This document shows, in pieces, positions 4,777 through 63,990 of a stretch of 64,000 nt of DNA. The notes beneath the pieces were generated by a model that was not told the DNA's origin, ran no database searches, and worked only from the letters and a program-made list of their open reading frames with translations. This DNA comes from an uncultured Anaerolineales bacterium (lineage in GTDB: Bacteria > Chloroflexota > Anaerolineae > B4-G1): NCBI GenBank assembly GCA_964575455.1, contig CAZNRX010000016.1:445-64444 (forward strand). Reading direction: 5' to 3'. Positions within the stretch are counted from its first letter, which is position 1. Every line of letters starts with the position of its first letter. The position numbers were made by a program, and so were the translations under genes.

Positions 4777-5000
4777 CTGTCTCCCACCTGAGAGATTCCT
4801 CCCGAGTGATATTTGGGATTGCCCCTTCGGTATCCTTAGCGCGGCCCCAGGTGCTCTTGGAGCTGCTCTCCGGATTTTCCAGAGTGCCGAGGTAAGGGGT
4901 CCGGTGACCTGAGAGTTTCGTCGCCGTAGTCAGCCGGCCACGGCGAGTTGCCCCTTCGGTGTCCGCTTGGAGGCGGCCTCTCCCCCATACCCCAGGGCGG
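4777..5000 (-). promoter_or_regulatory. tandem-aptamer glycine riboswitch
   Basis: Minus-strand RNA contains GGAGAG...CACCGAAGGGGCAA...AAACUCUCAGGUCACCGGAC (aptamer 1) and CUGGA..GGAGAG...UACCGAAGGGGCAA...AAUCUCUCAGGUGGGAGACAGAG (aptamer 2). These match the conserved GGAGAG / CGCCGAAGGAGCAA / CUCUCAGGCAAAAGGACAGAG blocks of the gcvT riboswitch. Confidence 0.7.
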
Positions 5001-29603: not shown

Positions 29604-30590
29604 ATGATTGATCAAATACTCGTCCCGCTGGATGGATCGTCTCTGGCGGAGTGTGTCCTCCCGCACGTGGTGGCCGTCGGGCGAGCCATGGAGGCGCAGG
29701 TGACGCTGCTGCGGGCTGTGGTGCGGGAACCGAGCCCGCAGTCTAGCGCTGTCGATCCGCTGAGATGGCACATGCGGAAGTCAGAGGCGGATTCCTACCT
29801 GCGCGAGGTGGCGGCGCGGCTGCGAGACACAGGGCTGGAGACCAAGTCCGTGCTGGCGGAGGGAAGGGCGCCCGAGCGCATCCTGGGGTACGCACGGGAA
29901 GAGGACGTTGGGCTCATCATCGTCAGCAGCCACGGCGAGAGCGGCCTGAGTCAGTGGAACATCAACAGCGTGGTGCAGAAGGTGATCCTGCAGGCCTATG
30001 CGCCGATCATGATCGTGAGAGCCTATGAGTGGACTGTAAGCGCAGCGACGTCACCCCAGCCGTCCACCGAGGAGCTGACCGAAACACGTTATGAGAGGGT
30101 GCTTCTGCCACTCGACGGCTCTCAGCGGGCCGAATGCACGCTGCCGTGGGCGAGCAGCCTGGCTGACTTCCACGGGTGCAAGCTGCTGCTGGCTCACGCA
30201 GTAAGGAGGCCGGAGGTTCCGCGTCGTGCCCCGTTGACGGAGGAGGAGAGCGAACTGGCGGAGCGGCTCACAGCCCTCAACCGAGAGCAAGGGGAGGCGT
30301 ACCTTCAGGATCTGAAGGCGCGTCTCGGCTCGGCTGCGGCGGAGTCGCGTCTGCTGGTGAGCGATGACCCGGCCAGAGCGCTACACGACGTGGTCGACGA
30401 GGATGACGTCGATCTGGTGGTGATGGCGGCCCATGGCTACTCCGGTGAGACGAGATGGCCCTACGGAAGCATAGCGTTGAACTTCATCGCTTACGGCTCC
30501 AAGCCACTGTTGATGATCCAAGACATACCCCCCGAAGAGGCGGAGACAACGGCAGCTGAGAGGGCGGCCAGTGAATACGCGGGACACTGA
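29604..30590 (+). CDS. tandem universal stress protein (2x UspA domains)
   Basis: Two USP domains (ILVPLDGS... and VLLPLDGS...), each with a G-x2-G-x9-GS ATP-binding-like motif. Confidence 0.8.
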   Translation: MIDQILVPLDGSSLAECVLPHVVAVGRAMEAQVTLLRAVVREPSPQSSAVDPLRWHMRKSEADSYLREVAARLRDTGLETKSVLAEGRAPERILGYAREEDVGLIIVSSHGESGLSQWNINSVVQKVILQAYAPIMIVRAYEWTVSAATSPQPSTEELTETRYERVLLPLDGSQRAECTLPWASSLADFHGCKLLLAHAVRRPEVPRRAPLTEEESELAERLTALNREQGEAYLQDLKARLGSAAAESRLLVSDDPARALHDVVDEDDVDLVVMAAHGYSGETRWPYGSIALNFIAYGSKPLLMIQDIPPEEAETTAAERAASEYAGH

Positions 30591-33500
30591 TCCGCGCGTG
30601 GAGGATCGGGCACGTCAACTGGCCGAGAGGCATAAAGCCACGCGCGGTTCTGGCGTCTCGACCCGAGGGCCCGGGCTAGACCGCCTGTCGACCGATTTGC
30701 TGAAGCGTCTCCCCGTGATCGAGCGGGTGCTCCGCGAGGCCTACACGGGCTTTGCCAGCGATGCCTTTGGCAGCGCGGTGCCCGAGGAACGGGGTACCCT
30801 GTCGGGCGTGGCCGAATGGGTCCTGGACAACTACTATGTGATCCAGAAGGCGATCCGGCAGATTGGGGAGAACATGCCGCGGGGCTACTACCGCCGGCTC
30901 CCCAAGCTCGTCGGCACAGACGACCGCTCACCCTTGAGCGGTTACCCTCGGGTGTACGCTGTGGCCCGAGAGATCATCCGCATCGCAGAAGGCCAGGTCG
31001 ACGTCGACCGCGTGCGGCGCTTCATCCGCGCATATCAGGAGGTCCGGCCCCTGACCATGGGGGAAATCTGGGCCCTGCCGACGATGCTGCGCCTGAGCCT
31101 GGTGGAGCTTCTGGCGTGGACCGTTGGTGGCGCAGCAGGGCTTGAGATCCCCATCAATGAGGAGCCGTTTCCCGGGCCAGTGGAGCTCGAGAACAAAGGC
31201 GACGAGGCCATCGTGGCCGGCGTCATCAACAGCTTGCGCGCCATTGACGACCACGAATGGGATGACTTCTTCGAGGCCACGAGCCTGGTGGAGGAGACGC
31301 TTCGCCTGGACCCTGCAGACGTCTACCCAGAGATGGACTTCGACAGCCGCGATCGCTACCGCGGCGTGGTCGAGAAGCTGGCGCGGGAGACGGATCAGTC
31401 CGAGCAGGAGGTGGCGCGAGCGGCGCTCCGCCTAGCCCGGAGACGGGCCGCCCGTCCTCGGGCCGCCCGCCCTCGGGCCGAGCACGTCGGTTTCTATCTG
31501 GTGGGCCGCGGGCGGGCGCAGCTTGAGGAGGCTGTCGGCTTTCGACCGGGGCTGTTGGAGCAGGCGCGCCGCTGGGTGTTCGGGCACCCCACACCGGTCT
31601 ATCTCGGCAGCATCGCCGTCATAACCGGGCTCGTCTTGGCCGGGGTACTGCTGTACGCGCACGGTGCTGCCGGGGGTGGGCAGCCCGCGGTCGGGCTGGG
31701 GGCTCTGGCGGCCGTCGCGCTGCTGACCCTTCTGCCGGCGTCGATTGTGGGCGTCAACCTCACAAACATGGTCATCACGCGCGCGGTGCCGCCGCGGGTG
31801 TTGCCCAAGCTCGATTTCAGCGACGGGATACCTGCTGACTATCGTACGATGGTCGTGATCCCGGCCCTGTTGAGCAGCGACGACGAGGTGGACTTCCTGC
31901 TGCGGCAGCTGGAGCTGCACTACCAGGGGAACGCTGACCCTCAGCTGGGGTTTGCGCTTCTGAGTGACTTCGCTGACGCGCCACAGAAACAGATGCCAGA
32001 GGATGAGCACCTGCTGCAGCGGGCCAGGGAGGGCATTCGACGCCTCAATCGCACGTACGGCAAGGGGGGGCGTGCTGAGGGTGCTGAGGGGCCGTTTCCA
32101 CCGCGAGAGACTCTGGAATCCCAAGGAGTCGTGCTGGATGGGGTGGGAGCGGAAGCGCGGCAAGCTGGTCGAGTTCAACCGCCTGCTGCGAGGCGAGCAT
32201 GAGACGTCGTACGTGGTGAAGATGGGCAATCTCGATTTCCTCCCCGAGGTGACGTACGTGATCACCCTGGATGCGGACACGGTCTTCCCACTGGACAGCG
32301 GGCATCGGTTGGTTGGCACCATGGCCCATCCACTGAATCAGGCTGAGTTCGACGCAGATGGAGCGGGCGGCCCGACAACGGGCGGCCCGACAACGGGCGG
32401 CCCGTATTCGGGCTATACGGTCCTCCAGCCGCGGACGGAGGTCAAGCCCACGGCAGTCACCCGCACCTGGTTCAGCAGGATCTTCGCGGGCGATGCAGGT
32501 CTGGATCTCTACACGCGCGCTGTCTCCGACGTCTATCAGGACTTCTTCGGTGAGGGGATCTACATCGGTAAGGGCATCTACGATGTGGATGCCTTTGAGC
32601 GCAGCCTGCGTGGGCGGGTGCCTGAGAACGCCCTGCTGAGTCACGACCTCTTCGAGGGCATCCACGGTCGGGCTGCCCTGGTGACGGACGTGGTGCTCTT
32701 TGAGGACTACCCCCCGACCTATCTGAGCTATGCACACCGAAAGCACCGTTGGGTGCGGGGTGACTGGCAGATTCTGCCCTGGCTCTTCCCGAGGGTGCCT
32801 CACGCCGGTGAAGGGACGATTCCCAACCCGCTCTCGGTTCTCGATCGCTGGAAGAGCTTCGACAACCTGCGGCGCAGCTTGCGCGCGCCCGCGCTCTTCG
32901 CCTTGCTCGTGGCCGGCTGGGTCTGCCTGCCTGGGTCGCCGCTGGTCTGGACGCTGATCGCGGTGGTGGCGTCTGGGCTGCCACTGGTCACGGGTGCGGT
33001 CACGGAGATGGCACGCCGTCTGGGAGGCGGACAGTCAGCTCCGGCCTCGTCGACGTTCTGGGAGCGGATGGGAAAGGAGGCTGCGCGCTGGCTGCTGAGC
33101 ATCGTATTCTTGCCCTACGAGTCGATTCTGATGGGCGACGCCGTTGTGACCACGCTGGTGCGTCTAACGATCAGCCGCAAGCGACTGCTGCAGTGGACGA
33201 CGGCCGCTCACACTGTGCGTCTCTTTGGGCGTGAGTCGAAGATAAAGTTGCTCTGGCAGGAGATGAGCGGTGGGCCGGTCCTGGGGCTCATGGTCGCGGT
33301 CGCGCTGGCCTTGTTCCGGCCCATGGTACTGCCCCTCGCTGCGCCGTTCCTTCTGTGCTGGCTGGTCTCCCCTCTGGTGGCGGCCCGCATCAGCCAGCCG
33401 GTGGAGGAAGAGGAGGCGTCGCTTTCCGGCGCTGAGCGTCGACGGCTGCGGCTTCTGGCCCGCCGCACGTGGCTGTATTTTGAGCGCTTCGTCGGCCCGG

Positions 33501-36500
33501 ACGATCATTGGCTGCCCCCCGATCATTTCCAGGAGGAGCCGCAGGGGAGGGTGGCGCACCGCACGTCCCCAACCAACATCGGACTGATGCTCCTCTCCTC
33601 TCTCGCTGCCTATGATCTGGGCTACATCGGGCTGATGGAGCTGTCGCTCCGCACGAGCGATGCCTTTGACAGCATGGATGAGCTTGAGAGGTACCGGGGC
33701 CACCTGCTGAACTGGTACGACACCAGAACCCTGGATTCGCTGGCCCCGCGCTACGTCTCCACGGTGGACAGCGGGAACCTGGCGGCGTGTCTGATTGCGC
33801 TTGGGCAGGGGCTGGAGCAGCTGGAGCAGGAGCGCATCCTGCGCTGGCAGCGTTGGCGAGGGCTGTGCGATGCGTTGGATGTGTTGAAGCAGATCATCAG
33901 GGCCGCGGAGCAGGGGGTGGACGCTGCTGCTCAGGAGGAGATTGAGCGTGCAGCCGCGGATCTGAGTCAATGGATCGACCGGATGCGCGAGAGGGTGCTC
34001 GCTGTGAGGGAGGAGCAGGAGCGTTGGATCCCTCTGCTCGCGGAGCTTGAAGAGGAGGTCGCCGAAGGCCTCAACCGACGGCTCCAGGCGCTGCTCGATG
34101 CAGGCTCAGGGATCCTGGGCACTGCGACCCTGCGCGATCTCCGGCTCTGGTCGGAGAGGCTTCACCTGCATCTGCGTGACTTGCGCAAGGGTATAGAGAG
34201 AGCTCTGCCCTGGGTCTTCCTGCTGAACGATCCCCCGCAGGTTCTCGTCAGTGAGCGATCCGAGGAGCTGACCCCAGCTATCGCTGAGGCGTGGCGAGGG
34301 ATTGAGGAGGCGCTGCCGCTCGATCCGCGCCTGGGGGAGATAAGCGCCGTCTGTCGCAGGGCTCGAGAGGAGCTGGAGGAGCTCCGGCAGCTGCTGAAGG
34401 AGGAGCTTGCGTCGCTGGACAGGGAGCAAGAGCCCGATCTCGTCGGTCAGCTGAAGGACGCCCTTGATTGGTCCGAGGAGCTGGATCAAGCCCTGGCGTC
34501 GGCCCGGATGACGGCTGGCGGCATGATGATCGGCCTTGACGATCTGATACAGCGGGCTGAGGCCTACGTTGACGACATGGCTTTCGGCTTCCTGTACGAT
34601 GATCGCCGGGACGTGTTCCACATTGGCTACCAGGTGGACAGCGAACAGCTGGATCGCAATCACTACGACCTGCTTGCTTCGGAGGCGCGCATTGCGAGCA
34701 TCGTGGCCATCAGCAAGCGGGAGGTCCCACAGGGCCACTGGCTGCACCTGAACCGTCCTCTTTCTCGCGTCGACGGGCTGCGCACGCTGCTCTCGTGGGG
34801 CGGGTCGATGTTCGAGTACCTGATGCCGGACCTGATGATGCGCAGGTATGAGGAGACGCTGCTCAACCAGGCGAACCGGGCCGCCGTGCGTCGCCAGATC
34901 GCCTATGGAGATGAGAAGGGCGTCCCCTGGGGGGTCTCCGAGTCGGGTTACTATCGTTTTGATGCGCAGCTGAACTACCAGTACCGGGGATTTGGCGTGC
35001 CCGGCCTGGGGCGGAAGCGAGGGCTGGGCGACGATCTGGTGATCGCCCCGTACGCCTCGCTGCTGGCCGTGGACGTGGCGCCGGAGGAGGTGTTGGAGAA
35101 CATCGACCTGCTGATTGAGCAGGGAATGCAGGGCCACTATGGTTTGTACGAAGCGCTGGACTACACAGCGTCGCGCCTGCCGATGGGGCAGAGGCGGGCC
35201 ATTGTGCGCTCCTACATGGCCCACCATCAAGGAATGATCATGGTGGCTCTATCTAACTACCTCAACGACCACGACATTGTGAATCGATTCCATCACGATC
35301 CCCGCATTCAGAGCGTGGAGTTCTTGCTTCAGGAACAGGTCCCCGGCCAGGCTCCGCTTGAGGAGGTGCCGGAGGAAAGCGTGGGCATCGAGCGGCTGCA
35401 GCGCGAGCGGGTGGAGCTTGAGCCCTGGTCCGTGCCAACCGACGCTCCCATGCCTCAGGTTCACTTCCTGTCCAACGGTCGCTACGGCTCGCTGATCACA
35501 GAGGCTGGCGCTGGCTACAGCACCTACTCTCCCAGGCGATCGGGCGCGGGGGAGACGGTGGCCCTGACCCGTTGGCGGGCGGACACCACGCGCGACTGCT
35601 GGGGGACGTGGATCTACGTGCAGGACCTGCACATGCAGGATCTGCACATGCAGGATCTGCACATGCAGGATCTGCACATGCAGGATCTGGAGGGCGGTCG
35701 CCCCGGTGAATCAGGCCTGTGGTCCGTGACCGAGCAGCCGACCCATGCGCGTGCGGACGACCAGCTGGCCCGGTTCTATCCCCATCGGGCCGAGTTCCGG
35801 CGGCGGTATGGCGATATCACCCTGCACACGGAGATCGTCGTGGCGCCGGAGGAGGACGTCGAGATTCGGCGCGTCAGCCTGATGAATCACGGCGATGAGG
35901 CTCGGCGTCTGCGGGTCAGCAGCTACGCGGAGGTGGCGCTCGCGGCTCAAGACAGAGACCGGCGACATCCGGCGTTCAACAAGATGTTCATCGAGAGCGA
36001 GCGTCTGTCGGAGGTCAACGCGCTTCTGTTCAAGCGGCGTCCTCGCTCAGCGAGCGACTCGCGTGGATCCGCCATAAGAAGAGTAAGCGAAGCGGCAGCT
36101 GGAGAGCCGTTGTGCATGGCTCATATGCTCGTCACGGCGCCCGGCATGGAGGACACAGGCGCCCACGAGAGCGACCGGGCGCAGTTCATCGGGCGCGGGC
36201 GCACGGCGCGCGAGCCAGCGGCCTTTCGCCGGAGGTACGACGGGCCGCCTGAGGCCGAGTGGTTGTCCGGAACAACGGGAGCTACCCTGGATCCGGTCAT
36301 GGCCTTGGGCCAAGACGTCGAGGTAGAGCCTCACGCGACGGTCGAGCTCGCCTATCTGACGCTGGCTGCGGAGTCGCGGGAGGATGCGATTGCCTTGGCT
36401 CGCCGGTATCAGTCCTGGACGCGCATCGACCGGGCGTTCGATCAGGCCCACGCGCAGAGTGAGTTGGAGCTGCGTAACCTGGATCTCGAGGTCTCTGACG

Positions 36501-39500
36501 TACGGGACATCATGCGGTTGCTCTCGGTGCTGCTGTATCCCCATCGGTCGCTGCGAGCCGATCCACAGACGCTGGCAGCTAACCGGCTGGGCCAGCCTGG
36601 CCTGTGGCGCCATGGCATCTCGGGCGACTACCCGATTCTTCTGGTCCGTATCGCGGATGAGGAGAGGGTGCCCCTGGTGCGCAAGCTGCTGAAGGCTCAC
36701 GCCTATTGGCGCGACCGTCAGCTCAAGGTGGACCTGGTGATCCTCAACGAGAAGGACGTGGGCTACGCCCAGGAGCTGAATGAGCAACTCAACCGCGTCA
36801 TCACTCAGATGGACAGCGACGCCTGGCTCAACCGGCGGGGCGGCATCTTTCTGCTTCGCGGTCATCAGATGGAGGAGGCCGAGAGGGATCTGTTGCTGAC
36901 GGCTGCGCGGGCCGTTCTCGCCGCCGCCGAGGGTTCGCTGCACGATCAACTGCGAGGCCTGTTGCAGGGGCCCAGCCCCTTGCCCGCCTTCCAGCCTACG
37001 GGGATGGTGGGGGAGCGAGAGCCGACGCCGGCCCTGCAGCGGCCAGATGACCTGCAGTTCGACAACGGATTCGGGGGCTTCAGCGCCGACGGGCGCGAGT
37101 ACGTCATCTATCTCGAGTCCGGCTCCGAGGCCAAGGGGCCCGATGCGTGGACGCCGGCCCCGTGGATCAACGTGATAGCGAACCCGGGCTTTGGGTTCCT
37201 GGTCTCCGACACCGGCCTGGGCTACAGCTGGGCTGGCAACAGTGGCGAGAATCGGCTGACGCCCTGGCGGAACGATCCCGTGTCGGACACCCCGGCGGAG
37301 GCGCTGTACCTGCGGGATGAGGAGACGGCGGAGGTCTGGTCGCCGACGCCCCTGCCTGCGGGAGAGGATGCGCCGTACATCGCCCGCCACGGCGCCGGCA
37401 ACTCCGTCTTCGAGCACAACAGCCACGGGTTGGAGCAGCGGCTGCGTCTGTTCGCCGTTCAGGACGCGCCGGTCAAAGTGATTCAGTTGCGCCTGGAGAA
37501 CACGTGGAGTCGAGCGCGGCGGCTGACGGCGACCTTCTTCGCCGAGTGGGTGCTGGGGGTCAGCCGAGACAAGGCGCAGCACTACGTGGTGTCGGAGTAC
37601 GATCCGGAGGCGAGCGGGTTGCTGGCGCGGAACACGTACCATTCGGCGCTCAACGGGCGCGAGGGAAGCGAGGCCGCCGTGGCTTTCCTGGTGACCAGCG
37701 AAGACCTGCACGGCCTGACCGCTGACCGGACGGAGTTCCTGGGGCGGAACGGGGAGATGGGTCACCCAGCGGCGCTGGATCGGGTCGGGTTAGCGAGCCG
37801 TGTGGAGCCGGGGCTCGATCCGTGCGCAGCGGTGCAGATGCACGTGGAGCTGGAGCCCGGCGAGGCGAAGGAGGTCTTCTTCCTGCTGGGGCAGGGTGAG
37901 GATCGCGACCATGCACTCGAGCTCATCGAGCGGTATCGGGATTGTGACGAGGTGGCCGCGGCGTGGGAGGAGGTACGCAGTTGGTGGGACGATCTGCTGA
38001 GCACGGTGACCGTCGATACCCCCGACCCGGCGATGGATGTGCTGCTCAACCGTTGGCTGCTCTACCAGGCGCTGTCCTGCCGCCTGTGGGGACGCTCGGC
38101 CCTCTACCAATCGAGCGGCGCGTTTGGGTTCCGCGACCAGCTGCAGGACGTGATGTCGCTGCTGCACGCTGCCCCAGAGCTCGCTCGGGAGCACATCCTC
38201 CGCGCGGCGCGTCACCAGTTCGAGGAGGGGGACGTCCTTCACTGGTGGCATCCTCCCTCGGGCCGCGGTGTCCGCACGCGTATCAGCGACGACCTGCTCT
38301 GGCTGCCCTACGTCACCGCCGAGTACGTGGAGGCGACGGGCGACGAGGAGATCCTGGATGAGGCGGTGCCCTTCCGTAGGGGCGAGCCCTTGGACGCAGA
38401 GGAGGAGGAGCGGTACGGGCGCTACGAGGTCACGGAGGAGAAGGCCACTCTCTATGAGCACTGCCTGCGCGCTCTGGACAAGGGCTCAACGTCGGGACGT
38501 CACGGCCTGCCGCTCATAGGCGCCGGGGACTGGAACGATGGGCTGAACCGTGTGGGGCTCGAGGGCGAGGGAGAGAGCGTCTGGCTGGGGTGGTTCCTCT
38601 ATGCCACGCTGTCCCGCTTCGCCCAGCAGAGCCGGGATGCCAATCAGGCCGAGACGCTCCGCAAGCGGGCAAAGGGGCTGCAGGAGGCGCTGCGGGAGAG
38701 CGCCTGGGATGGAAACTGGTACATTCGGGCCTTCTACGACGACGGGACGCCCCTCGGCTCCTCACAGAGCGACGAGTGCCAGATCGCCTCGATGGCGCAG
38801 TCCTGGGCTGTCCTCTCCGGGGCGGGGGACGAGGAGCGCCCTGAGCAGGCGATGGCATCCGTCGCCGACCGGCTGGTGCGGAAGGACGACCGGCTTCCGG
38901 TTGGCTTGATGCTCCTCTTCACACCGCCGTTCGATGAGACCCCCCGTGACCCGGGGTACATCAAGGGCTATCCCCCGGGCATCCGAGAGAACGGCGGGCA
39001 GTACACGCACGCAGCGCTCTGGGCTGTGTGGGCCTACGCCGAGCTGGGGCAGGGCGACCGCGCGGGCGAGCTCTTCCAGATGCTCAATCCCATCCGTCAC
39101 AGCGACACGCGCGAGAAGGCGCGACGGTATCGCGTGGAGCCCTACGTCGTCGCAGCCGACGTCTACAGCGCCGACCAGCACCTCGGGCAGGGAGGGTGGA
39201 CCTGGTATACGGGCTCGTCGGGGTGGATGTACCGCCTGGGCCTTGAGGCGATTCTGGGGTTCAGGAGGGAGGGGGATGCGCTGCGCATCGAGCCGTGTAT
39301 TCCAAAGGACTGGTCGGGATATGGGATGACCTACCGACATGGTGAGACGTTGTACCGGATCGAGGTCGAGAATCCCAAGCACGTCAACGAGGGCGTCGAG
39401 AGGATCACTCTGGACGGCGAGGATATCTCGACCAGGCATGGACATGGTCGGGTTCCCCTGCTTGATGATGGGGACCAGCACCAGGTGCGCGTGACGATGG

Positions 39501-39505
39501 GCTAG
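30571..39505 (+). CDS. cyclic beta-1,2-glucan synthase (Cgs/NdvB-like: N-terminal domain, TM region, GT84 glycosyltransferase, GH94 phosphorylase-like domain), with frameshift at a G7 tract (32064-32070)
   Basis: ORF 30571..32202 and ORF 31964..39505 are consecutive parts of one Cgs homolog (GT84 signatures YVITLDADT, LSHDLFEG, RWVRGDWQ; GH94-like C-terminal two-thirds). The frames switch at the GGGGGGG homopolymer; one fewer G gives the continuous reading ..RLNRTYGKGGVLRVLRGRFHRERLWNPKESCWMGWERKRGKL. Confidence 0.75.
35621..35690 (+). repeat. 15 bp in-frame microsatellite (CAGGAYCTGCACATG)x4.6 encoding (QDLHM)n
   Basis: Perfect tandem copies inside the glucan synthase CDS. Confidence 0.85.
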
Positions 39506-42780: not shown

Positions 42781-43131
42781 ATGCTGCAAAGAGCAGAGGA
42801 CGTCTATGGATTGACGGTTGAGGCGGTCGACGGTGATGCGGGGCGCGTGCATAACCTGTTCTTTGACGATCAGCAATGGGTGGTTCGCTACGTCGTCGTG
42901 GACACGGGGGGCTGGCTTGGTGGAAGACGCGTCTTGCTCTCCCCCGTTGCGATCAAAGGGGTGCTTCGGGACGACGGTGAGATGGAGGTTGCGCTCACCA
43001 AGTCGCAAGTGGAGCACAGTCCGGACATCGATCTGGATAAGCCGGTCTCCAGGCAACAGATCGTCGAGCTGCATGGGCCGAGACGCCCGAGTACTATGGT
43101 TGGCCCGCCTACTGGGGCGGCAGCGCGATGA
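42781..43131 (+). CDS. PRC-barrel domain protein, probably frameshifted relative to the next gene
   Basis: PRC-barrel signature (VHNLFFDDQQWVVRYVVVDTGGWL..RRVLLSP). The conserved C-terminal tail (ETPEYYGWPAYWGG) is encoded in the frame of the next ORF rather than this one. Confidence 0.6.
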   Translation: MLQRAEDVYGLTVEAVDGDAGRVHNLFFDDQQWVVRYVVVDTGGWLGGRRVLLSPVAIKGVLRDDGEMEVALTKSQVEHSPDIDLDKPVSRQQIVELHGPRRPSTMVGPPTGAAAR

Positions 43132-43565
43132 TGGGTACGGCGACCCCGGGCGTCTATCCGATGATTATGGCCGGCGTGGATCAGGTCGAGGCGGAGATGA
43201 AAGAGCAGGGTCCCAGCGAAAAGCATCGCGGTGACCCTCATCTGCGCAGCGCCAGGGCGGTGGATGGCTATGACATCCACGCCCTCGACGGCGAGATCGG
43301 GCACGTGGAGGACTACTTCGTTGACGACAAGGACTGGGTGATCCGCTATTTGCTGGTGGATACCCGGGACTGGCTGCCCGGCCGCGAGGTCCTGATCTCG
43401 CCGAGCTGGATCGAGCGCGTGGACTGGGCCGAGACGGCGGTGCACGTAGCGTTGACAAAAGCTCAGATTGAGGCCAGTCCGGCGTACGACCCCGAGGAGC
43501 CGCCTGGTCGTGACTACGAGGCGCTGCTTCATAGGTACTATGGCTATCCCGGCTACTGGTCGTAG
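43128..43565 (+). CDS. PRC-barrel domain protein
   Basis: VEDYFVDDKDWVIRYLLVDTRDWLPGREVLISP and the C-terminal RYYGYPGYWS motif. Confidence 0.7.
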   Translation: MMGTATPGVYPMIMAGVDQVEAEMKEQGPSEKHRGDPHLRSARAVDGYDIHALDGEIGHVEDYFVDDKDWVIRYLLVDTRDWLPGREVLISPSWIERVDWAETAVHVALTKAQIEASPAYDPEEPPGRDYEALLHRYYGYPGYWS

Positions 43566-44849: not shown

Positions 44850-45175
44850 GAAACCCTAGTGCTCTTTCACACAACAGACCTTGGCTTTTCCCTGCTCCCA
44901 GCCCTCGTCCTCGAGGGCGGTCTGGCCCAGGACAAGGCTCGATAGCACGCGTAAGCCGCCCCGAGACGGGGCTCAGAGCGACTGAAAAGTCCAAGTTAGA
45001 CGTGTGAAATTCCACTAGTGCTCTTTCACACAACAGACCTTGGCTTTTCCCTGCTCCCAGCCCTCGTCCTCGAGGGCGGTCTGGCCCAAGACAAGGCTCG
45101 ATAGCACGCGTAAACCGCCCCGAGACGGGGCTCAGAGCAACTGAAAAGTCCAAGTTAGACGTGTGAAATGGCACT
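44850..45175. repeat. tandem duplication (2 copies, 159 bp unit, about 97% identical) of a highly structured element
   Basis: Unit CTAGTGCTCTTTCACACAACAGACC...GCCCTCGTCCTCGAGGGCG...CCCCGAGACGGGG...GTTAGACGTGTGAAAT. It has 8 bp terminal inverted repeats TTTCACAC/GTGTGAAA and two internal perfect hairpins. A third copy begins at 45174 and diverges. Confidence 0.85.
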
Positions 45176-45281
45176 AGCAAGGTGATCGCCACGGTGCGGC
45201 GAATTTCCCACGGGCGCTGTGTGGTGCGTGGCACCTCACGATGGTAAGTAGGTTAGCATGCAGAGAGAGTGGAGGGCTAAG

Positions 45282-49986: not shown

Positions 49987-50029
49987 ACACGCCCGGGGTT
50001 GATTCCTGATGCCCAGCGGTTCGCGCTCG

Positions 50030-51055
50030 ATGGGACACGCGTTCATCGTCCTCAATCCGGTGGCGGGACAGAGCAGTGACGAGATGCGGCGTCATCTGGA
50101 GCGGCACTTCGCCGCCACGGGCTGGACGTGCGAGCTATACGCTACCACTGGCGAGGAACGCGTCGCGGATGTGGTGCGGGCCGCTTTGCCTCGGGCGCCG
50201 GAGCGGGTCGACGACCAAGTGGATCTTGTCGTCGCGGCCGGGGGCGACGGGACCGTATCCGGTGTAGCGGGGGGGATCGCACAGACCGAGATCCCATTGG
50301 GCGTCATCCCTCTTGGCACGGGGAACACGTTTGCGCGTGAGCTAGGTATTCCCCTGGCTCTTGAGCCGGCGCTGAACCTGTTGACGGGCGATCACACCCT
50401 GCTGAACGTCGACGGCATGGCAGTTGGCGAGCGGTTCTTCGTGCTGAGCGTAAGCATCGGGATCAGCGGTTTGATTATGCGCGACACCGAGCGGGCGGAC
50501 AAGCGTCGTTTTGGACGCGTGGCCTACGTTTGGACCGGGCTGAGGAAGCTATTTGGCTACCAGCCTCACCGGTTCGGCGTGACGATCGACCACGAGCAGA
50601 CCCGATTGATCCGAGCGTCGGAGATCGCCATCGCCAACAGCGGAGCCCTGGGTGATCCATCGCTGCGCTGGAGTCCGCACGTCGAGCTGGACGATGGCCG
50701 CATCGATGTCTGTATCCTGCGTGCCAGATCCGTCCTGGACTACATCGGCTTGGCCGTAGCTGTGGTGCTCAGACGGCACGCCGAGGAGCCAGGGATACGT
50801 CACTACATCGCAGAGCGCCGGGTTGAGGTGGATACCCGCTCTGATCTACCCGTGCAGGGTGACGGGGAGTTCATCGGGAAGCCCCCCGTTGAGGTGACCG
50901 TGTTGCCTGGCGCTTTCCGGGTGGTCGTACCTCTCTCACTCTCCCATGATCTGAAGCACGAGCCGCCGGGAACGGGGACGGGTGTCGAAGTCGAGGAAGA
51001 CGATCTGCTGCCACGTGCCCAACGTGAGGTCACCGTCGACGAAGGGGACGGTTAG
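50030..51055 (+). CDS. diacylglycerol kinase catalytic domain (LCB5/YegS-like) lipid kinase
   Basis: DAGK_cat motifs (VVAAGGDGTVS..GVIPLGTGN). Confidence 0.8.
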   Translation: MGHAFIVLNPVAGQSSDEMRRHLERHFAATGWTCELYATTGEERVADVVRAALPRAPERVDDQVDLVVAAGGDGTVSGVAGGIAQTEIPLGVIPLGTGNTFARELGIPLALEPALNLLTGDHTLLNVDGMAVGERFFVLSVSIGISGLIMRDTERADKRRFGRVAYVWTGLRKLFGYQPHRFGVTIDHEQTRLIRASEIAIANSGALGDPSLRWSPHVELDDGRIDVCILRARSVLDYIGLAVAVVLRRHAEEPGIRHYIAERRVEVDTRSDLPVQGDGEFIGKPPVEVTVLPGAFRVVVPLSLSHDLKHEPPGTGTGVEVEEDDLLPRAQREVTVDEGDG

Positions 51056-56332: not shown

Positions 56333-59300
56333 TCAGTCGATCTGCAAAGCGATCACCTTTCGCGCCAACACGCTGATCGCCTCATTGCGTCTCTGTAGCT
56401 GGCCCTTGATCACCACAAAGGGCGAACGGAGGGCCTTCCGGCTCTCCTCATAGACTTTGGGACGGATGACGACGTTGATGAGCCCTCCCTCATCCTCCAG
56501 CGTCAGGAAGGCTACGCCCTTGGCCGTTGGAGGACGCTGGCGCGAGACGACGATGCCGCCCACCCGTACCTGGCATCCATCCTCCAATTCCGACAGCGCC
56601 TCGCTCGGCGTCGCGTGCACTGCCTTTAGCTTGTCGCTGATCAGAGCTGTGGGATGTTCCCGGGCGCTCATCCCGGTGTGTGCCATCTCGGTCCATAACC
56701 TCCCTCGCGGCGAGAGAAAGGCGAAGCGGGGCCGGCCTTCCGGCGGTGGGATGGCCAGCTCCTGGGTGACCGCCCTTGACCCGGAGCCTGCGGCTGCTTC
56801 CAGGGCCGTCTTCAACTCCCAGATCAGTTGTCGTCGTGGGACGCCCCATTCGTCGAAGGCGCCGGCCCAGATCATGCCCTCTACAGCTCTTCTTCCCAGC
56901 TTCGTGCGCCGGCAGAAGTCGGCCAGGGAGCGGAAGGGGCCGAAGCGCCGCGCCTCCACCACGCTCTGGCCGCCGACCTCCCCCAGCTCTTTGATCACCG
57001 CTAGCCCCAGCCGCAGCGCCTGGCCCTCCACAGTGGCCTGCAGCTCGGAGGCCTCCACATCTGCCGGACGGACCTCCAAGCCGCGGCGACGAGCCTCGGA
57101 GACGACCACGTGCGCTGGATAGAACCCCATGGGCTGATGGCGCAGCAGGGCGGCGAAGAAGGCCAAGGGGTGGTAGCGCCGCAGCCAAGCGGACTGGTAC
57201 GTCAGCACGGCGAAGGCCGCTGCGTGGCTCTTGGGGAACGAGTAGCTGCCGAAGGCCTGGAGCTGCTCGAAGATCCGCTCCGCTGCTCTCGCCTCGACGC
57301 CTCGCTCTGCCGCGCCGTCGAGGAAGCGTCTCCTGAAGCGCGCGATCCTCCGTCCGGCGCGCTTGTGCGAAAGGGCGCGCCGCAGGAGCTCTGCCTCACC
57401 CGGGGTGAACCCGGCCAGATCTCGCGCCACCTTCAAAACCTGCTCCTGGAAGATGATCACGCCCAGCGTCTCCCTGAGCGCGTCCTCCAGGAGGGGGTGT
57501 GGATAGCTGATCGGCTCGCGGCCCTCGCGGCGGCGCAGGTAGGGGCGGACCATCTGGGCCTGAAGCGGCCCGGGACGGATGAGGGAGATTTGGATGACCA
57601 GGTCGTCGAACGAACGCGGCTGAAAGCGCGGGATCAGGTTGGCCTGGGCTCTCGATTCCACCTGGAAGACGCCGATCGTCTTGCCTTGGCAGAGCATGTC
57701 GTAGACCTCGGGGTCATCTTGTGAGAGCGACGTCAGGTCCGGGCGCTGCTCGGTCTGGCCTTCGACGATGGTCACGGCGTCCTCGATGAGAGAGAGCATC
57801 CTCAGCCCCAACAGGTCGATCTTGACCAATCCCGCGCCCTCCAGGCCATCCTTGTCCCATTGGGTGACCACGGGGGTAGAGGACACCCCTAGGCCCTCCA
57901 TGGTCGCCGGCTCCAGCGGCACCAGCTCGCACAGCGGTGGGCCGGAGAGCACCACACCCCCGTTGTGGATCCCCAGATGGCGTGGGATGCCCTCCAGTTG
58001 GGGCACCAGCCGCAGGAGGTGTTGGAACAGCCTGGGTGACTGTGTCGACCCGGGTGACTGTGTCGACCCGGGTGAGTTGGCGCCCTTGCACGCCGCCCCG
58101 CCTGTCAGTTGCTCGGCATCGAACGCCTGCAGCATCCCGCGTGACTCTCTCACGCTTTTCGCGTCTCGGACGTCGAGCGACTTAGCCAGTCGCTCCACCA
58201 GCGCCGGCGGGAACCCGAGCACGCGCGCCACGTCCCGCACCGCCGATCGGGCGCGGAAGGTGACGAAGGTGCAGGCCATAGCTGCGTGCTCCCGGCCGTA
58301 GCACTGGTAGACGTATTGGATCACCTCCTCGCGCCGGTCGGCGGCGATGTCGATGTCGATGTCGGGCGGTGAGCCGCGCTCCTGTGAGAGGAAGCGCTCA
58401 AAGACCAGATCGCACGCCACCGGATCGATAGGGCTGATATCCAGAAGGTAGGCCACTAGCGAGTTGGCCGCGCTTCCCCGGCCCTGGTAGCGAATGCCCG
58501 CCTGTTGGGCGAAGCGCACGATATCCCAGACGACGAGGAAGTAGTTGGACAGCCCCATCTGTTGGATCACCGAGAGCTCCTGCTCCAGCAGCGCGGTCGG
58601 CGGATTGACAGGGTAGCGGCGATGAAGCGCCCGCTGGCACAGTTGCCGCAGTCTGTGGTGAGCGTCGCTGGGTGCCCCCCCTCTTATCCCCCCCAGAGGG
58701 GGGGAAGCGGGCTTTGGGGTTCCCCTCCCAGAGGGGGAGCGGGCCTTGGGGACCTCCCCCAGAGAGGGGGAAGCGGGCTTTGGGGTTCCCCCCCAGAGGG
58801 GGAGCGGGCTTTGGGGTTCCCCCCCAGAGGGGGGGAAGCTAGGGCCTTGGGGACCTCCCCCAGAGTGGGGGAGGCTAGGGCCTCGGGGCCCCTCCCAGAG
58901 GAGAGAGGTTGGGGCCTTGAAGAGTCCCCCCGGAGGGGAGGAGGTTGGGGTCTCGGGGAGTGTCTGCATCCCGGCGGGCAGGTAGTCGCACGCTGGTGCA
59001 CAGCGTTGGGCGATGCGCAGGGCGTTCTCCAGGGCGATAGGCACGTCGCTGAAGAGCCTCGCCATCTCCCCCGGCGAGCGCAGGATATACTCGTCGTTGG
59101 AGCGCAGCAGATCGTCGGCGTCCTCCAGGACGGTCTGATGGTGGATGCAGCGCAGGACGTCGTGAACCTCCCGCTGGTGTGGATGGAGGTAGTGGACGTT
59201 TCCGGTCGCCACCACGTCGAGGCCGGCCCGATCGGCCAGCGTCGTCAGCTGCGCCAGAAGCCGGTTATCGTCCCTCACGTAGTGGCGCTGCAGCTCGATG

Positions 59301-59788
59301 AAGAAGCGATGAGGGCCGAAGACGCGGGCGTAGCCCTGAGCCGCGCTCAACGCTTGCTCACGTTTCTTGGCCATCAACAAGCGCGGTATCTCGCCCCGGC
59401 GACAGCCCGAGAGCGCAATCAAGCCCTCGGCGTGGGCGGCGAGGTCACGCTTGTCAAGCCGAGCTACTCCCTTGTCCTGATGCTGACGCGCCAGCGTGAT
59501 CAGGCGGCACAGGTTGGCGTATCCCTCCGCGGTCTCTATCAGAAGGATGAGGTGGGAACCTTCTTCGTGTGCCGGGTCGCGGAGCGTCATCTCGCTGCCC
59601 AGGATGGGCTTGACCCCTGCCTCCCGCGCAGCCTTCACGAAGCGCACCGCGCCGTAGAGCGCGTCGTGGTCGGTCAGGGCCAACGCAGGGATCCCTAGAT
59701 CGGCCGCTCGGACCGCCAGCGCCTCCGGCGAGGGGACGCCGTCGAGCAAGCTATGGCTAGAGTGGGTGTGAAGCTCGGCGTATTTCAT
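56333..59788 (-). CDS. dnaE2: error-prone DNA polymerase III alpha-like subunit (DnaE2/ImuC) carrying an in-frame Pro/Gly-rich repeat insertion
   Basis: PHP N-terminus (YAELHTHSSHSLLDG), polymerase core and a C-terminal OB fold. Preceded by imuB and a LexA box. Start taken at MKYAELH; the tracked ORF extends to 59860 across direct repeats. Confidence 0.8.
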   Translation of the reverse strand: MKYAELHTHSSHSLLDGVPSPEALAVRAADLGIPALALTDHDALYGAVRFVKAAREAGVKPILGSEMTLRDPAHEEGSHLILLIETAEGYANLCRLITLARQHQDKGVARLDKRDLAAHAEGLIALSGCRRGEIPRLLMAKKREQALSAAQGYARVFGPHRFFIELQRHYVRDDNRLLAQLTTLADRAGLDVVATGNVHYLHPHQREVHDVLRCIHHQTVLEDADDLLRSNDEYILRSPGEMARLFSDVPIALENALRIAQRCAPACDYLPAGMQTLPETPTSSPPGGLFKAPTSLLWEGPRGPSLPHSGGGPQGPSFPPSGGEPQSPLPLWGGTPKPASPSLGEVPKARSPSGRGTPKPASPPLGGIRGGAPSDAHHRLRQLCQRALHRRYPVNPPTALLEQELSVIQQMGLSNYFLVVWDIVRFAQQAGIRYQGRGSAANSLVAYLLDISPIDPVACDLVFERFLSQERGSPPDIDIDIAADRREEVIQYVYQCYGREHAAMACTFVTFRARSAVRDVARVLGFPPALVERLAKSLDVRDAKSVRESRGMLQAFDAEQLTGGAACKGANSPGSTQSPGSTQSPRLFQHLLRLVPQLEGIPRHLGIHNGGVVLSGPPLCELVPLEPATMEGLGVSSTPVVTQWDKDGLEGAGLVKIDLLGLRMLSLIEDAVTIVEGQTEQRPDLTSLSQDDPEVYDMLCQGKTIGVFQVESRAQANLIPRFQPRSFDDLVIQISLIRPGPLQAQMVRPYLRRREGREPISYPHPLLEDALRETLGVIIFQEQVLKVARDLAGFTPGEAELLRRALSHKRAGRRIARFRRRFLDGAAERGVEARAAERIFEQLQAFGSYSFPKSHAAAFAVLTYQSAWLRRYHPLAFFAALLRHQPMGFYPAHVVVSEARRRGLEVRPADVEASELQATVEGQALRLGLAVIKELGEVGGQSVVEARRFGPFRSLADFCRRTKLGRRAVEGMIWAGAFDEWGVPRRQLIWELKTALEAAAGSGSRAVTQELAIPPPEGRPRFAFLSPRGRLWTEMAHTGMSAREHPTALISDKLKAVHATPSEALSELEDGCQVRVGGIVVSRQRPPTAKGVAFLTLEDEGGLINVVIRPKVYEESRKALRSPFVVIKGQLQRRNEAISVLARKVIALQID
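58681..58975. repeat. about 8 tandem copies of a 33-36 bp GC-palindromic unit (CCCCCCCAGAGGGGGGG-AAGCGGGCTTTGGGGTT) inside the dnaE2 coding frame
   Basis: Seen directly in the sequence. It encodes the peptide ..GGLFKAPTSLLWEGPRGPSLPHSGGGPQGPSFPPSGGEPQSPLPLWGGTPKPASPSLGEVPKARSPSGRGTPKPASPPLGG.. without stop codons. Confidence 0.85.
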
Positions 59789-59860
59789 GAACGCGAAAGG
59801 CACGAAAGATGAACACGAAAGGCACGGAATACGAACACGAAGGGCGCGAAAGGCGGGCAC
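59789..59860. repeat. three direct repeats of about 22 bp (ATGAACRCGAAAGGCACGRAAK) in the imuB-dnaE2 junction
   Basis: Seen in the sequence immediately upstream of the proposed dnaE2 start. Confidence 0.7.
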
Positions 59861-62209: not shown

Positions 62210-63022
62210 CTATTCGCGTCTATCGGCCCGCGGAGCGCGCCGCTGCCAGAGCCCGACGCCCCAGCGCACGATGGCCAGCTGGGAGAGGCCGATCCAGATC
62301 AGGAGCAGGGTAGCTCCCCAGGCGACTGTCTGAATCGGGCGGCCCACGTTTTGGCGGGCGGTTCCCACGCGCGTCTGGAGCTGCTCCAGATTGCTGCGGT
62401 GACTGCTGAGCGCCGCGTCGGCGTCGACCACGTTCTGGCGGATGCCCAACATATGGTCTCCCATGAGCGCGATGCCGCTTTGGACGTCGTCGAGGCTGGC
62501 GCTGGTCTCAAGCAGTCCGGCTCCCATAGCGCGCAAGCTCTCGGGCACCGGCGCCAGGCCCGCCCCGGCCTCCGCCACGGCTTGATCGAGCGGGATATTC
62601 GGATCGTAGCCTCCAACGCCGAGCTGCTGAAGGCTGCGGAGCAGCTGATCGATCACCGCAGCTGTCTCCTCCAGCGCATCCAGGGCCAGCAGCGAGGCCT
62701 CAATGCTCTGTGGCAGATCATCTTCGGCCAGTCCAGCTATCTCGTCGACCGTCACCCGGGTGCTGCTCAACGTTTGACTCACGTCGAGCGTTGTGGTGTA
62801 GAGGCCATTGATGGCGATGGCGGCGCCGTCCAGCGTGGTAGACGCTACGTCCAGCGAGCGGTCGACATCCTTCAGTGTGTCTGAGAGCAGGAGCAGGCTA
62901 TCGTCGGCCGCGACTGCGACATCCTCGGCCGCGCGCCAGACGTAGATCACGCCCAGGGCGCTGAGCGCGATCCCCAGGGCGCCAAGTAGGATGAGCAACG
63001 TGCCTAGGATACGTCGAGTCAT
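62210..63022 (-). CDS. membrane-anchored hypothetical protein (N- and C-terminal TM helices, coiled-coil ectodomain)
   Basis: 270 aa with TM segments at both ends and a central Ala/Leu-rich helical region. Confidence 0.55.
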   Translation of the reverse strand: MTRRILGTLLILLGALGIALSALGVIYVWRAAEDVAVAADDSLLLLSDTLKDVDRSLDVASTTLDGAAIAINGLYTTTLDVSQTLSSTRVTVDEIAGLAEDDLPQSIEASLLALDALEETAAVIDQLLRSLQQLGVGGYDPNIPLDQAVAEAGAGLAPVPESLRAMGAGLLETSASLDDVQSGIALMGDHMLGIRQNVVDADAALSSHRSNLEQLQTRVGTARQNVGRPIQTVAWGATLLLIWIGLSQLAIVRWGVGLWQRRAPRADRRE

Positions 63023-63990
63023 GAGGGCACCTCCTCTTGTTCGGTCACGCGCTTGCGTGCTTCCTGGTAGAGCGCGGTCAGGTCGTTCTGGACCCGCTGC
63101 ACGGTCATAGCTCGACGGGCGTCGCCGTCGAACGAGATCTTCCCCGACATGGCCGCCCGAGCGGGGTTGATTCGGCCGGTGAACATCGCATCCATCACAT
63201 CGGCGTCCATCTCCAGCCGGACCTCCGCCGGAGCTGGTGGCTGGCCCAGACCGCCAATGACCGTGCCGTCCTGGAAGCCCAGGTAGACCTCCAGGCTTGG
63301 ATCTTGCAGCACGTAGTGCGTGGTCAACTGGCGTCCCTTGGCAAACTCTTTTAAGGCCGGGTCGTCTGCGGCGAGCTCGACGAAGGCGTCTAAGACGCGC
63401 TTCATCTCTCCCTCGCTCAGTGGCTGGAGTGGGGTTGAGACGTCTTGTTGCCGCTCTTCACGCCCAGTCGAGCTGCGACCGCTTCCCAGACCACGCAGTG
63501 CGGCCAAGACCCGCCTGACAAGCCCCTGACGCGTCGCGTCCCCCGCTCTTGTCCCCACCGGGGTGGGGGAGGCCCCCCCTCTCGTCCCCCCCAGAGGGGG
63601 GGAGGCCCCCGCTCTTGTCCCCACCGGGGTGGGGGAGGCCCCCCCTCTCGTCCCCCCCAGAGGGGGGGAGGTTGGATGCGGTCCCCCGACATCGTGGAGG
63701 GCCTCACGAAGCTCCGTCTCCAACTCGTAGAGCGGAATGGAGCGAGCTGACTCCTTGAGCATCTCCAAGGTGGGGTACCCCTCCTCCTGCTCGGCCGTCC
63801 ACTCCTCTGCGAACTGTCCGCTCCGGATCTCATCCAGGCCATCCCGCATTCTATCGCGCAGTCCAGGGAGCTGGAAGCGCATGCCGCGCGACATGGAGCC
63901 ATACTGGCTGGTGCGGCTGTGAAGCTGGCTCTGTTCCACCATGCCCAACTCGGCAATCTTCCCCAGCGTGTAGGAAAACTCACCGGACAT
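63019..63990 (-). CDS. partial CDS (N-terminus beyond the window): ketol-acid reductoisomerase-like C-terminal domain fused through a Pro/Gly-rich repeat insertion to an SCP2 sterol-carrier domain
   Basis: ..YMSGEFSYTLGKIAELGMVEQSQLHSRTSQYGSMSRGMR..DEIRSGQFAEEW.. resembles the KARI C-terminal knotted domain. The C-terminal 110 aa (..MSGKISFDGDARRAM..) resembles SCP2. Confidence 0.55.
   Translation of the reverse strand: MSGEFSYTLGKIAELGMVEQSQLHSRTSQYGSMSRGMRFQLPGLRDRMRDGLDEIRSGQFAEEWTAEQEEGYPTLEMLKESARSIPLYELETELREALHDVGGPHPTSPPLGGTRGGASPTPVGTRAGASPPLGGTRGGASPTPVGTRAGDATRQGLVRRVLAALRGLGSGRSSTGREERQQDVSTPLQPLSEGEMKRVLDAFVELAADDPALKEFAKGRQLTTHYVLQDPSLEVYLGFQDGTVIGGLGQPPAPAEVRLEMDADVMDAMFTGRINPARAAMSGKISFDGDARRAMTVQRVQNDLTALYQEARKRVTEQEEVPS
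63540..63670. repeat. two tandem 67 bp GC-palindromic units (..CCCCACCGGGGTGGGGG..CCCCCCCAGAGGGGGGG..) in frame within the KARI-SCP2 gene
   Basis: Seen directly. Shares the C7-AGA-G7 core with the dnaE2 insertion. Encodes ..PPLGGTRGGASPTPVGTRAGASPPLGGTRGGASPTPVGTRAG... Confidence 0.85.

Follow-up and report, generated by a model that had tools for sequence, protein, structure and literature searches.

A gene of the Cgs/ChvB/NdvB family was found in a 64,000-nt stretch of DNA (the window) from an uncultured, Anaerolineales-like member of the Chloroflexota, whose nearest relatives are labelled as Anaerolineales or Anaerolineae MAGs. The family is already well characterized, and the copy in the window is now a pseudogene. 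We consider it highly probable (roughly 85%) that this copy is a recent loss-of-function allele caused by an 8-bp deletion (TCTTCCTC) in cgs, and that a run of seven G residues a short distance upstream is uninvolved.

The divided cgs gene and its intact relative

The cgs gene is divided between two ORFs of the ORF listing, both on the forward strand (+). ORF1 (30571 to 32202) encodes 543 aa of the 5' portion: an N-terminal domain, a pair of TM helices, and the initial third of the GT84 glycosyltransferase domain. ORF2 (31964 to 39505) is the 3' portion, is in the +1 frame relative to ORF1, and runs for 2513 codons from stop to stop; it contains the remaining GT84 sequence, four TM helices, the glycoamylase-like cyclase region, and the GH94 phosphorylase. 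The earlier note, which gave 540 aa for the first ORF, had described this pair and had taken both to be parts of one Cgs/NdvB-type gene, and our results agree. Pfam matches were obtained for the central glycoamylase-like (cyclase) region (PF10091, E=2e-22) and the C-terminal GH94 phosphorylase (PF06165, E=5e-136; PF17167, E=3e-122), the two processing modules expected of a Cgs. The GT84 region matched Agrobacterium tumefaciens Cgs (8rf9_A / 8rf0_A) in a phmmer search against PDB (E=5.1e-87, query residues 4-334), with a query that carried the motif of the intact orthologue described below. The start codon of cgs is uncertain, as the orthologue is called from a TTG equivalent to position 30697. 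For ORF2, the source record calls a protein of 2430 aa from a GTG at 32213. The exact 543-aa product of ORF1 is also recorded in the NCBI and Logan protein collection.

A syntenic relative, JGI contig Ga0374083_0024798, was found by exact-sequence look-ups of neighboring proteins. It shares with the window the gene order response regulator, MgtC/DUF4010, HtrA, Usp, cgs, LigA, DUF72, and P-type ATPase, and it carries one intact cgs of 2953 aa with 99.2% DNA identity across the gene. Since the window copy lies in two ORFs of different frames and the orthologue is a single gene, the window copy is a disrupted member, or pseudogene, of the Cgs family. Further contigs were also sought through exact matches to the P-type ATPase and Usp products, neither of which had been recorded. 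A first protein search, covering proteins up to about 1.75 times the query length, returned no full-length homologue and nothing near-identical, and a third, in which short junction-spanning fragments were sought as proxies for other runs or alleles, returned none above 65% identity. A degenerate-pattern scan of metagenome contigs for YVVKMGNLDF gave 0 matches, and a protein-guided metagenome scan gave only one useful relative (L084).

Pairwise alignment of cgs from the window and the JGI contig showed 75 mismatches in about 9.3 kb, plus three indels. Two of these are in frame and consist of 15-nt repeat units; only the third, an 8-nt gap after position 32095, breaks the frame. The same junction (32095..32096, +) was seen in the multi-species DNA alignment, and it can be placed in either of two ways, 1 nt apart (32095/32096 or 32096/32097). 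The JGI gene reads AAT CGC ACG TAC GGC AAG GGG GGG CGT GCT GAG GGT GCT GAG GGG CCG TTC TTC CTC TTC CAC CGC GAG around the site, encoding ...GKGGRAEGAEGPFFLFHRERLWNPKESCWMGWERKRGKL..., and the full intact junction sequence is TTCTTCCTCTTC at 32095. Where the intact relative has CCG TTC TTC CTC TTC CAC (P-F-F-L-F-H), the window has CCG TTT C CAC. Upstream of the junction the window reads ...A-E-G-P-F, and the downstream frame then reads (F)-H-R-E-R-L-W-N-P, which suggests that the native frame continues past the G run to about 32097. The native frame thus holds in ORF1 up to 32097 and in ORF2 from about 32096. The end of ORF1 (32098..32202, +) is an out-of-frame product of the deletion, a nonsense tail of 34 residues (PPRETLESQGVVLDGVGAEARQAGRVQPPAARRA) followed by a stop. 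A 9-nt tandem duplication, GTGCTGAGG x2, lies just before the junction (32072..32089, +); it is in the native frame (AEGAEG) and is likewise present in the intact orthologue.

More distant relatives all have PFYLFH at this site (L084, 81% aa identity; L001, 77%; L002, 74%), with a consensus of ...P-F-(Y/F)-L-F-H-R-E-R-x-W-N... before WMGWERKRGK, and DNA alignment with these three places the 8-nt gap at CCGT--------TTCCAC. As the full motif is present in these relatives, the state in the window is derived. Phe(-16) and Arg(-11), numbered from the Trp of WMGWERKRG, are present in every one of 233 homologues, and the length of this segment does not vary. The GT84 motif F-x-Phi-Phi-H-R, which stands at this fixed spacing before WMGWERKRG, is broken in the window by the absence of the 8 nt. 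The aligned counterpart of the motif in A. tumefaciens Cgs (GT84 domain, PDB 8rf9) is RFYLLH, at about residues 546-551.

The window gene resembles Cgs/ChvB/NdvB in its layout (N-terminal domain, TM helices, GT84, glycoamylase-like cyclase, and GH94 phosphorylase, the layout of A. tumefaciens Cgs being taken from PMC10901819) and in its size of about 2950-2980 aa. It differs in being frameshifted inside GT84, with part of the invariant F-x-L-F-H gone, so that the single uninterrupted GT84-to-processing polypeptide of about 2800-3000 aa is lacking. Its host is an uncultured member of the Chloroflexota rather than a proteobacterial symbiont or pathogen, and it contains in-frame 15-nt tandem repeats whose copy number varies between close strains. 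One repeat, in the AARPR region (31444..31480, +), has 4 units (60 nt) fewer than the JGI gene, with the gap at 31441; another, DLHMQ x4.7 (35619..35689, +), has one unit more (extra 35619-35633). These two differ (-4 and +1 units) from the 99%-identical JGI strain and therefore behave as coding VNTRs. A third, GGPTT x2.7 (32364..32404, +), is located in a variable GT84 loop. Database matches included many Cgs GT-region proteins of 300-850 aa encoded on long contigs (tens of kb to Mb); cgs calls that are split or incomplete seem to be common in public assemblies, whether through real lesions in so large a gene or through assembly errors.

The G7 run and the site of the frameshift

The earlier note had placed the frameshift at GGGGGGG, 32064-32070, and had offered a homopolymer sequencing error, a genuine inactivating mutation, or slipped-strand phase variation as explanations. 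The run is indeed present (+), as part of the codons AAG GGG GGG (K-G-G) in a variable linker, and the deletion lies 25 nt downstream of it. Removal of one G does open a frame of 2977 codons, as the note had said, but it does not restore the native protein. The resulting reading, ...GKGGVLRVLRGRFHRE..., has ten residues out of frame and three missing, and it puts Arg at the invariant Phe(-16), three residues short of the spacing found in all 233 homologues. No single-base correction gives back the native protein. Taken by itself, the window sequence permits a shift point anywhere from 31964 (the last stop in the downstream frame) to 32202 (the stop of ORF1). A codon-usage likelihood scan was flat (within 1.6 log units) over 32062-32098, allowing no choice among the G7, a G4 at 32086-89, and the TTT/CC site. 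Deletion of a G from the G4 also opens the frame, a candidate made moot by the orthologue.

The open frame and the flat scan are what could be said for a gain of one G (G6 to G7) as the frameshift, whether by sequencing error or by phase variation of an envelope-glucan synthase, and we regard this as extremely unlikely. The identical G7 is in frame in the 99.2%-identical intact orthologue, the 8-nt deletion is the sole frame-breaking difference, and the length of the run is constant among the window, the Logan assembly, and the JGI orthologue. G7/C7 runs are also under-represented in the window, which is 64.5% GC (15 observed versus 26.4 +/- 6.4 expected from dinucleotide-preserving shuffles, of which 96 of 100 reached 15), and two other coding G7 runs (28191 and 50269) are in frame, inside domains that match Pfam profiles end to end. 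Since the lesion is outside the homopolymer, neither a sequencing error there nor slipped-strand phase variation accounts for the frameshift. The inactivating mutation is the best supported of the three explanations.

Poly-G/poly-C contingency loci of Neisseria, Haemophilus, and Campylobacter, which are phase-variable surface and glycosyltransferase genes, resemble the window gene in having a G run near a frameshift in an envelope-polysaccharide gene. In the window, however, the frame changes outside the run, the run is short (7), not enriched, and no different in length from that of the intact orthologue, and an 8-nt deletion is irreversible by slippage. With regard to programmed frameshifting or recoding, all orthologues examined were single-frame, and the two-frame organization and slippery site were conserved in none of them. 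In every feature that could be tested, the window gene departs from contingency loci and from programmed frameshifting.

The deletion in two assemblies and other variation in the window

Logan contig SRR7048227_247677 (3666 nt) matches window positions 30084-33749 at 100% identity, deletion included, and encodes the exact 543-aa product with the nonsense tail, indicating that reads support the deletion. The NCBI and Logan contigs are independent assemblies, though perhaps not of independent samples; reads may be common to both, so that a slight chance of an artefact, or of a minority allele, remains. A literature search for SRR7048227 returned no papers. The source, an NCBI contig of 68,994 nt, is metagenome-derived and the deletion sits in a low-complexity pyrimidine stretch, so a sequencing or assembly artefact, or a minority variant taken into the consensus while the real gene is intact, has to be weighed; we judge it improbable. 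Besides the agreement of the second assembler, the internal repeats (TTC, CTC; 3 nt) are far below assembler k-mers and would not be expected to collapse without supporting reads. Multi-base deletions outside homopolymers, such as this one, are not typical short-read errors. In addition, a frameshifted allele of a PRC-barrel gene in the window recurs in a different run (Logan contig SRR7048220_390240), which argues that small non-3n indels are real in this population. End-to-end Pfam matches were obtained for other large genes of the window, such as dnaE2, ligA, the P-type ATPase, and a histidine kinase, and the assembly is thus not error-ridden. The genome could carry another cgs copy, or the population an intact allele alongside this one.

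The PRC-barrel gene (42781-43565, +) contains a 14-nt insertion, TGGGCCGAGACGCC, at 43074-43087 compared to an intact 256-aa JGI gene. The initial 10 nt of this insertion are found again at 43425, within the gene's second PRC repeat, and it may therefore be templated. A diacylglycerol-kinase-like gene (50009-51055, +) differs from its JGI counterpart by a 2-nt indel near 50929, just past the last Pfam domain, and its C-terminal tail is different and longer (348 versus 308 aa).

DNA identity between window positions 19394-53027 and the JGI contig is a mosaic: 90-92% at 19.4-26.6 kb, 96.6% at 26.8-31.4 kb, 98.8-100% at 31.4-44.9 kb (cgs to DUF72), 96% at 45.2-49.0 kb, and 90-95% beyond, with synteny stopping near 53 kb. 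This pattern is consistent with recombination between populations. An intergenic direct repeat of 159 nt is present in 2 copies, 96% alike, at 44856-45177; at about 98% identity, each copy corresponds to the first 128-136 nt of the JGI contig, suggesting a dispersed repeat at which that contig, too, terminates.

Two arrays of palindromic units were found within ORFs of the reverse strand. One (58686-58870, in ORF 56333-59860, -) has a period of 32/65 nt, with CCCCCCC-AGA-GGGGGGG and the spacer AAGCGGGCTTTGGGGTT; it is in frame in a dnaE2-like DNA polymerase III alpha, where it adds about 60 aa rich in Gly, Pro, and Ser between the PHP domain and the polymerase core. The other (63540-63671, in ORF 63019-63990, -) has similar C7...G7 palindromic units of 33/66 nt and lies between KARI_C (IlvC C-terminal) and SCP2 matches in a single open frame, and two coding regions may have been fused or bridged by the element. 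The sole Rfam match in the window was a glycine riboswitch aptamer (RF00504, 52 bits; 4887-4995, -), and neither the Rfam nor the tRNA scan yielded anything relevant to the cgs locus.

Consequence and age of the lesion

The polypyrimidine stretch hit by the deletion is short, TTC TTC CTC TTC, and the deletion probably arose by replication misalignment in this pyrimidine microrepeat. It removed part of the invariant P-F-(Y/F)-L-F-H motif of GT84 and moved the frame by +1, so that translation from the native start would stop at 32202 after the nonsense tail. The other 7.3 kb of the gene would then be untranslated or, at best, be expressed as an internally initiated fragment, and the G7 is ordinary coding sequence (Lys-Gly-Gly) with no role. 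The deleted segment presumably corresponds to a core beta-strand that precedes the nucleotide-binding K-x-G-x-L/N motif of GT2-type folds. Because the GT84 domain is split and the invariant motif lost, the enzyme should be non-functional; judging from motif conservation, synthase activity has probably been lost.

The split gene could conceivably still function, through +1 ribosomal or transcriptional slippage, as two cooperating polypeptides, or by internal initiation, and we hold this to be very unlikely. ORF2 is open for its 2513 codons without further damage, and two routes can be drawn from the sequence. The first is at CCG-UUU-C, which precedes Pro-Pro codons; there tRNA-Phe could re-pair with UUU_C in the +1 frame. 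Further on, a Shine-Dalgarno-like AAGGAG, 9 nt, and an ATG (32123..32140, +; the ATG at 32138 being the Met of WMGWERKRGK in the ORF2 frame) form a possible, fortuitous restart site for a C-terminal fragment of 2455 aa, which would be a stand-alone cyclase/GH94 protein. Any rescued product, however, would be three residues short in a motif of invariant spacing, the closest relative is single-frame with no recoding site, and nothing of the arrangement is conserved. The undamaged ORF2 is equally explained by a recent lesion (dN/dS roughly 0.15), and a fragment without complete GT84 should be unable to make glucan, judging from PMC10901819. Programmed frameshifting and transcriptional slippage were rejected, given single-frame orthologues and a rescued product without the invariant motif. 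Very unlikely, too, is the specific outcome of low-level +1 slippage at CCG-UUU-C, before a Pro-Pro stall, giving a synthase 3 residues short, or of a cyclase plus GH94 fragment of 2430-2455 aa expressed from the AAGGAG-ATG at 32138; if true, an Anaerolineales bacterium would be keeping the C-terminal fragment as an enzyme that processes beta-1,2-glucan on its own.

Recent loss by the 8-bp deletion also fits the substitutions. Of the 75 in cgs, 24 change an amino acid (the dN/dS value above was obtained by simple counting), and replacements polarized with three outgroups were 4 window-derived versus 7 JGI-derived. The window-derived replacements are no more numerous than the JGI-derived ones, so there is no decay, or sign of relaxed selection, since the lesion. 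With differences mostly synonymous and ORF2 undamaged, the deletion is recent compared with the approximately 1% by which the two populations have diverged. The window copy has the features of ordinary recent pseudogenes: a single derived non-3n indel in a gene that is otherwise intact and was formerly under purifying selection, an intact allele in a close relative, and a second such lesion nearby (the PRC-barrel gene). There is no notable difference from such pseudogenes, and a gene of about 9 kb is a large mutational target.

These results are chiefly a correction. An open frame gained by editing a nearby homopolymer is no proof that the lesion is there, and in this case the near-identical intact orthologue located the true cause of the frameshift. 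No new mechanism is involved, and the bearing on the ecology of osmoprotective or envelope glucans is modest. What the comparison of the two alleles suggests is gene loss in progress, in which one uncultured Chloroflexota population would be without cyclic-glucan synthase while a sister population retains the gene.
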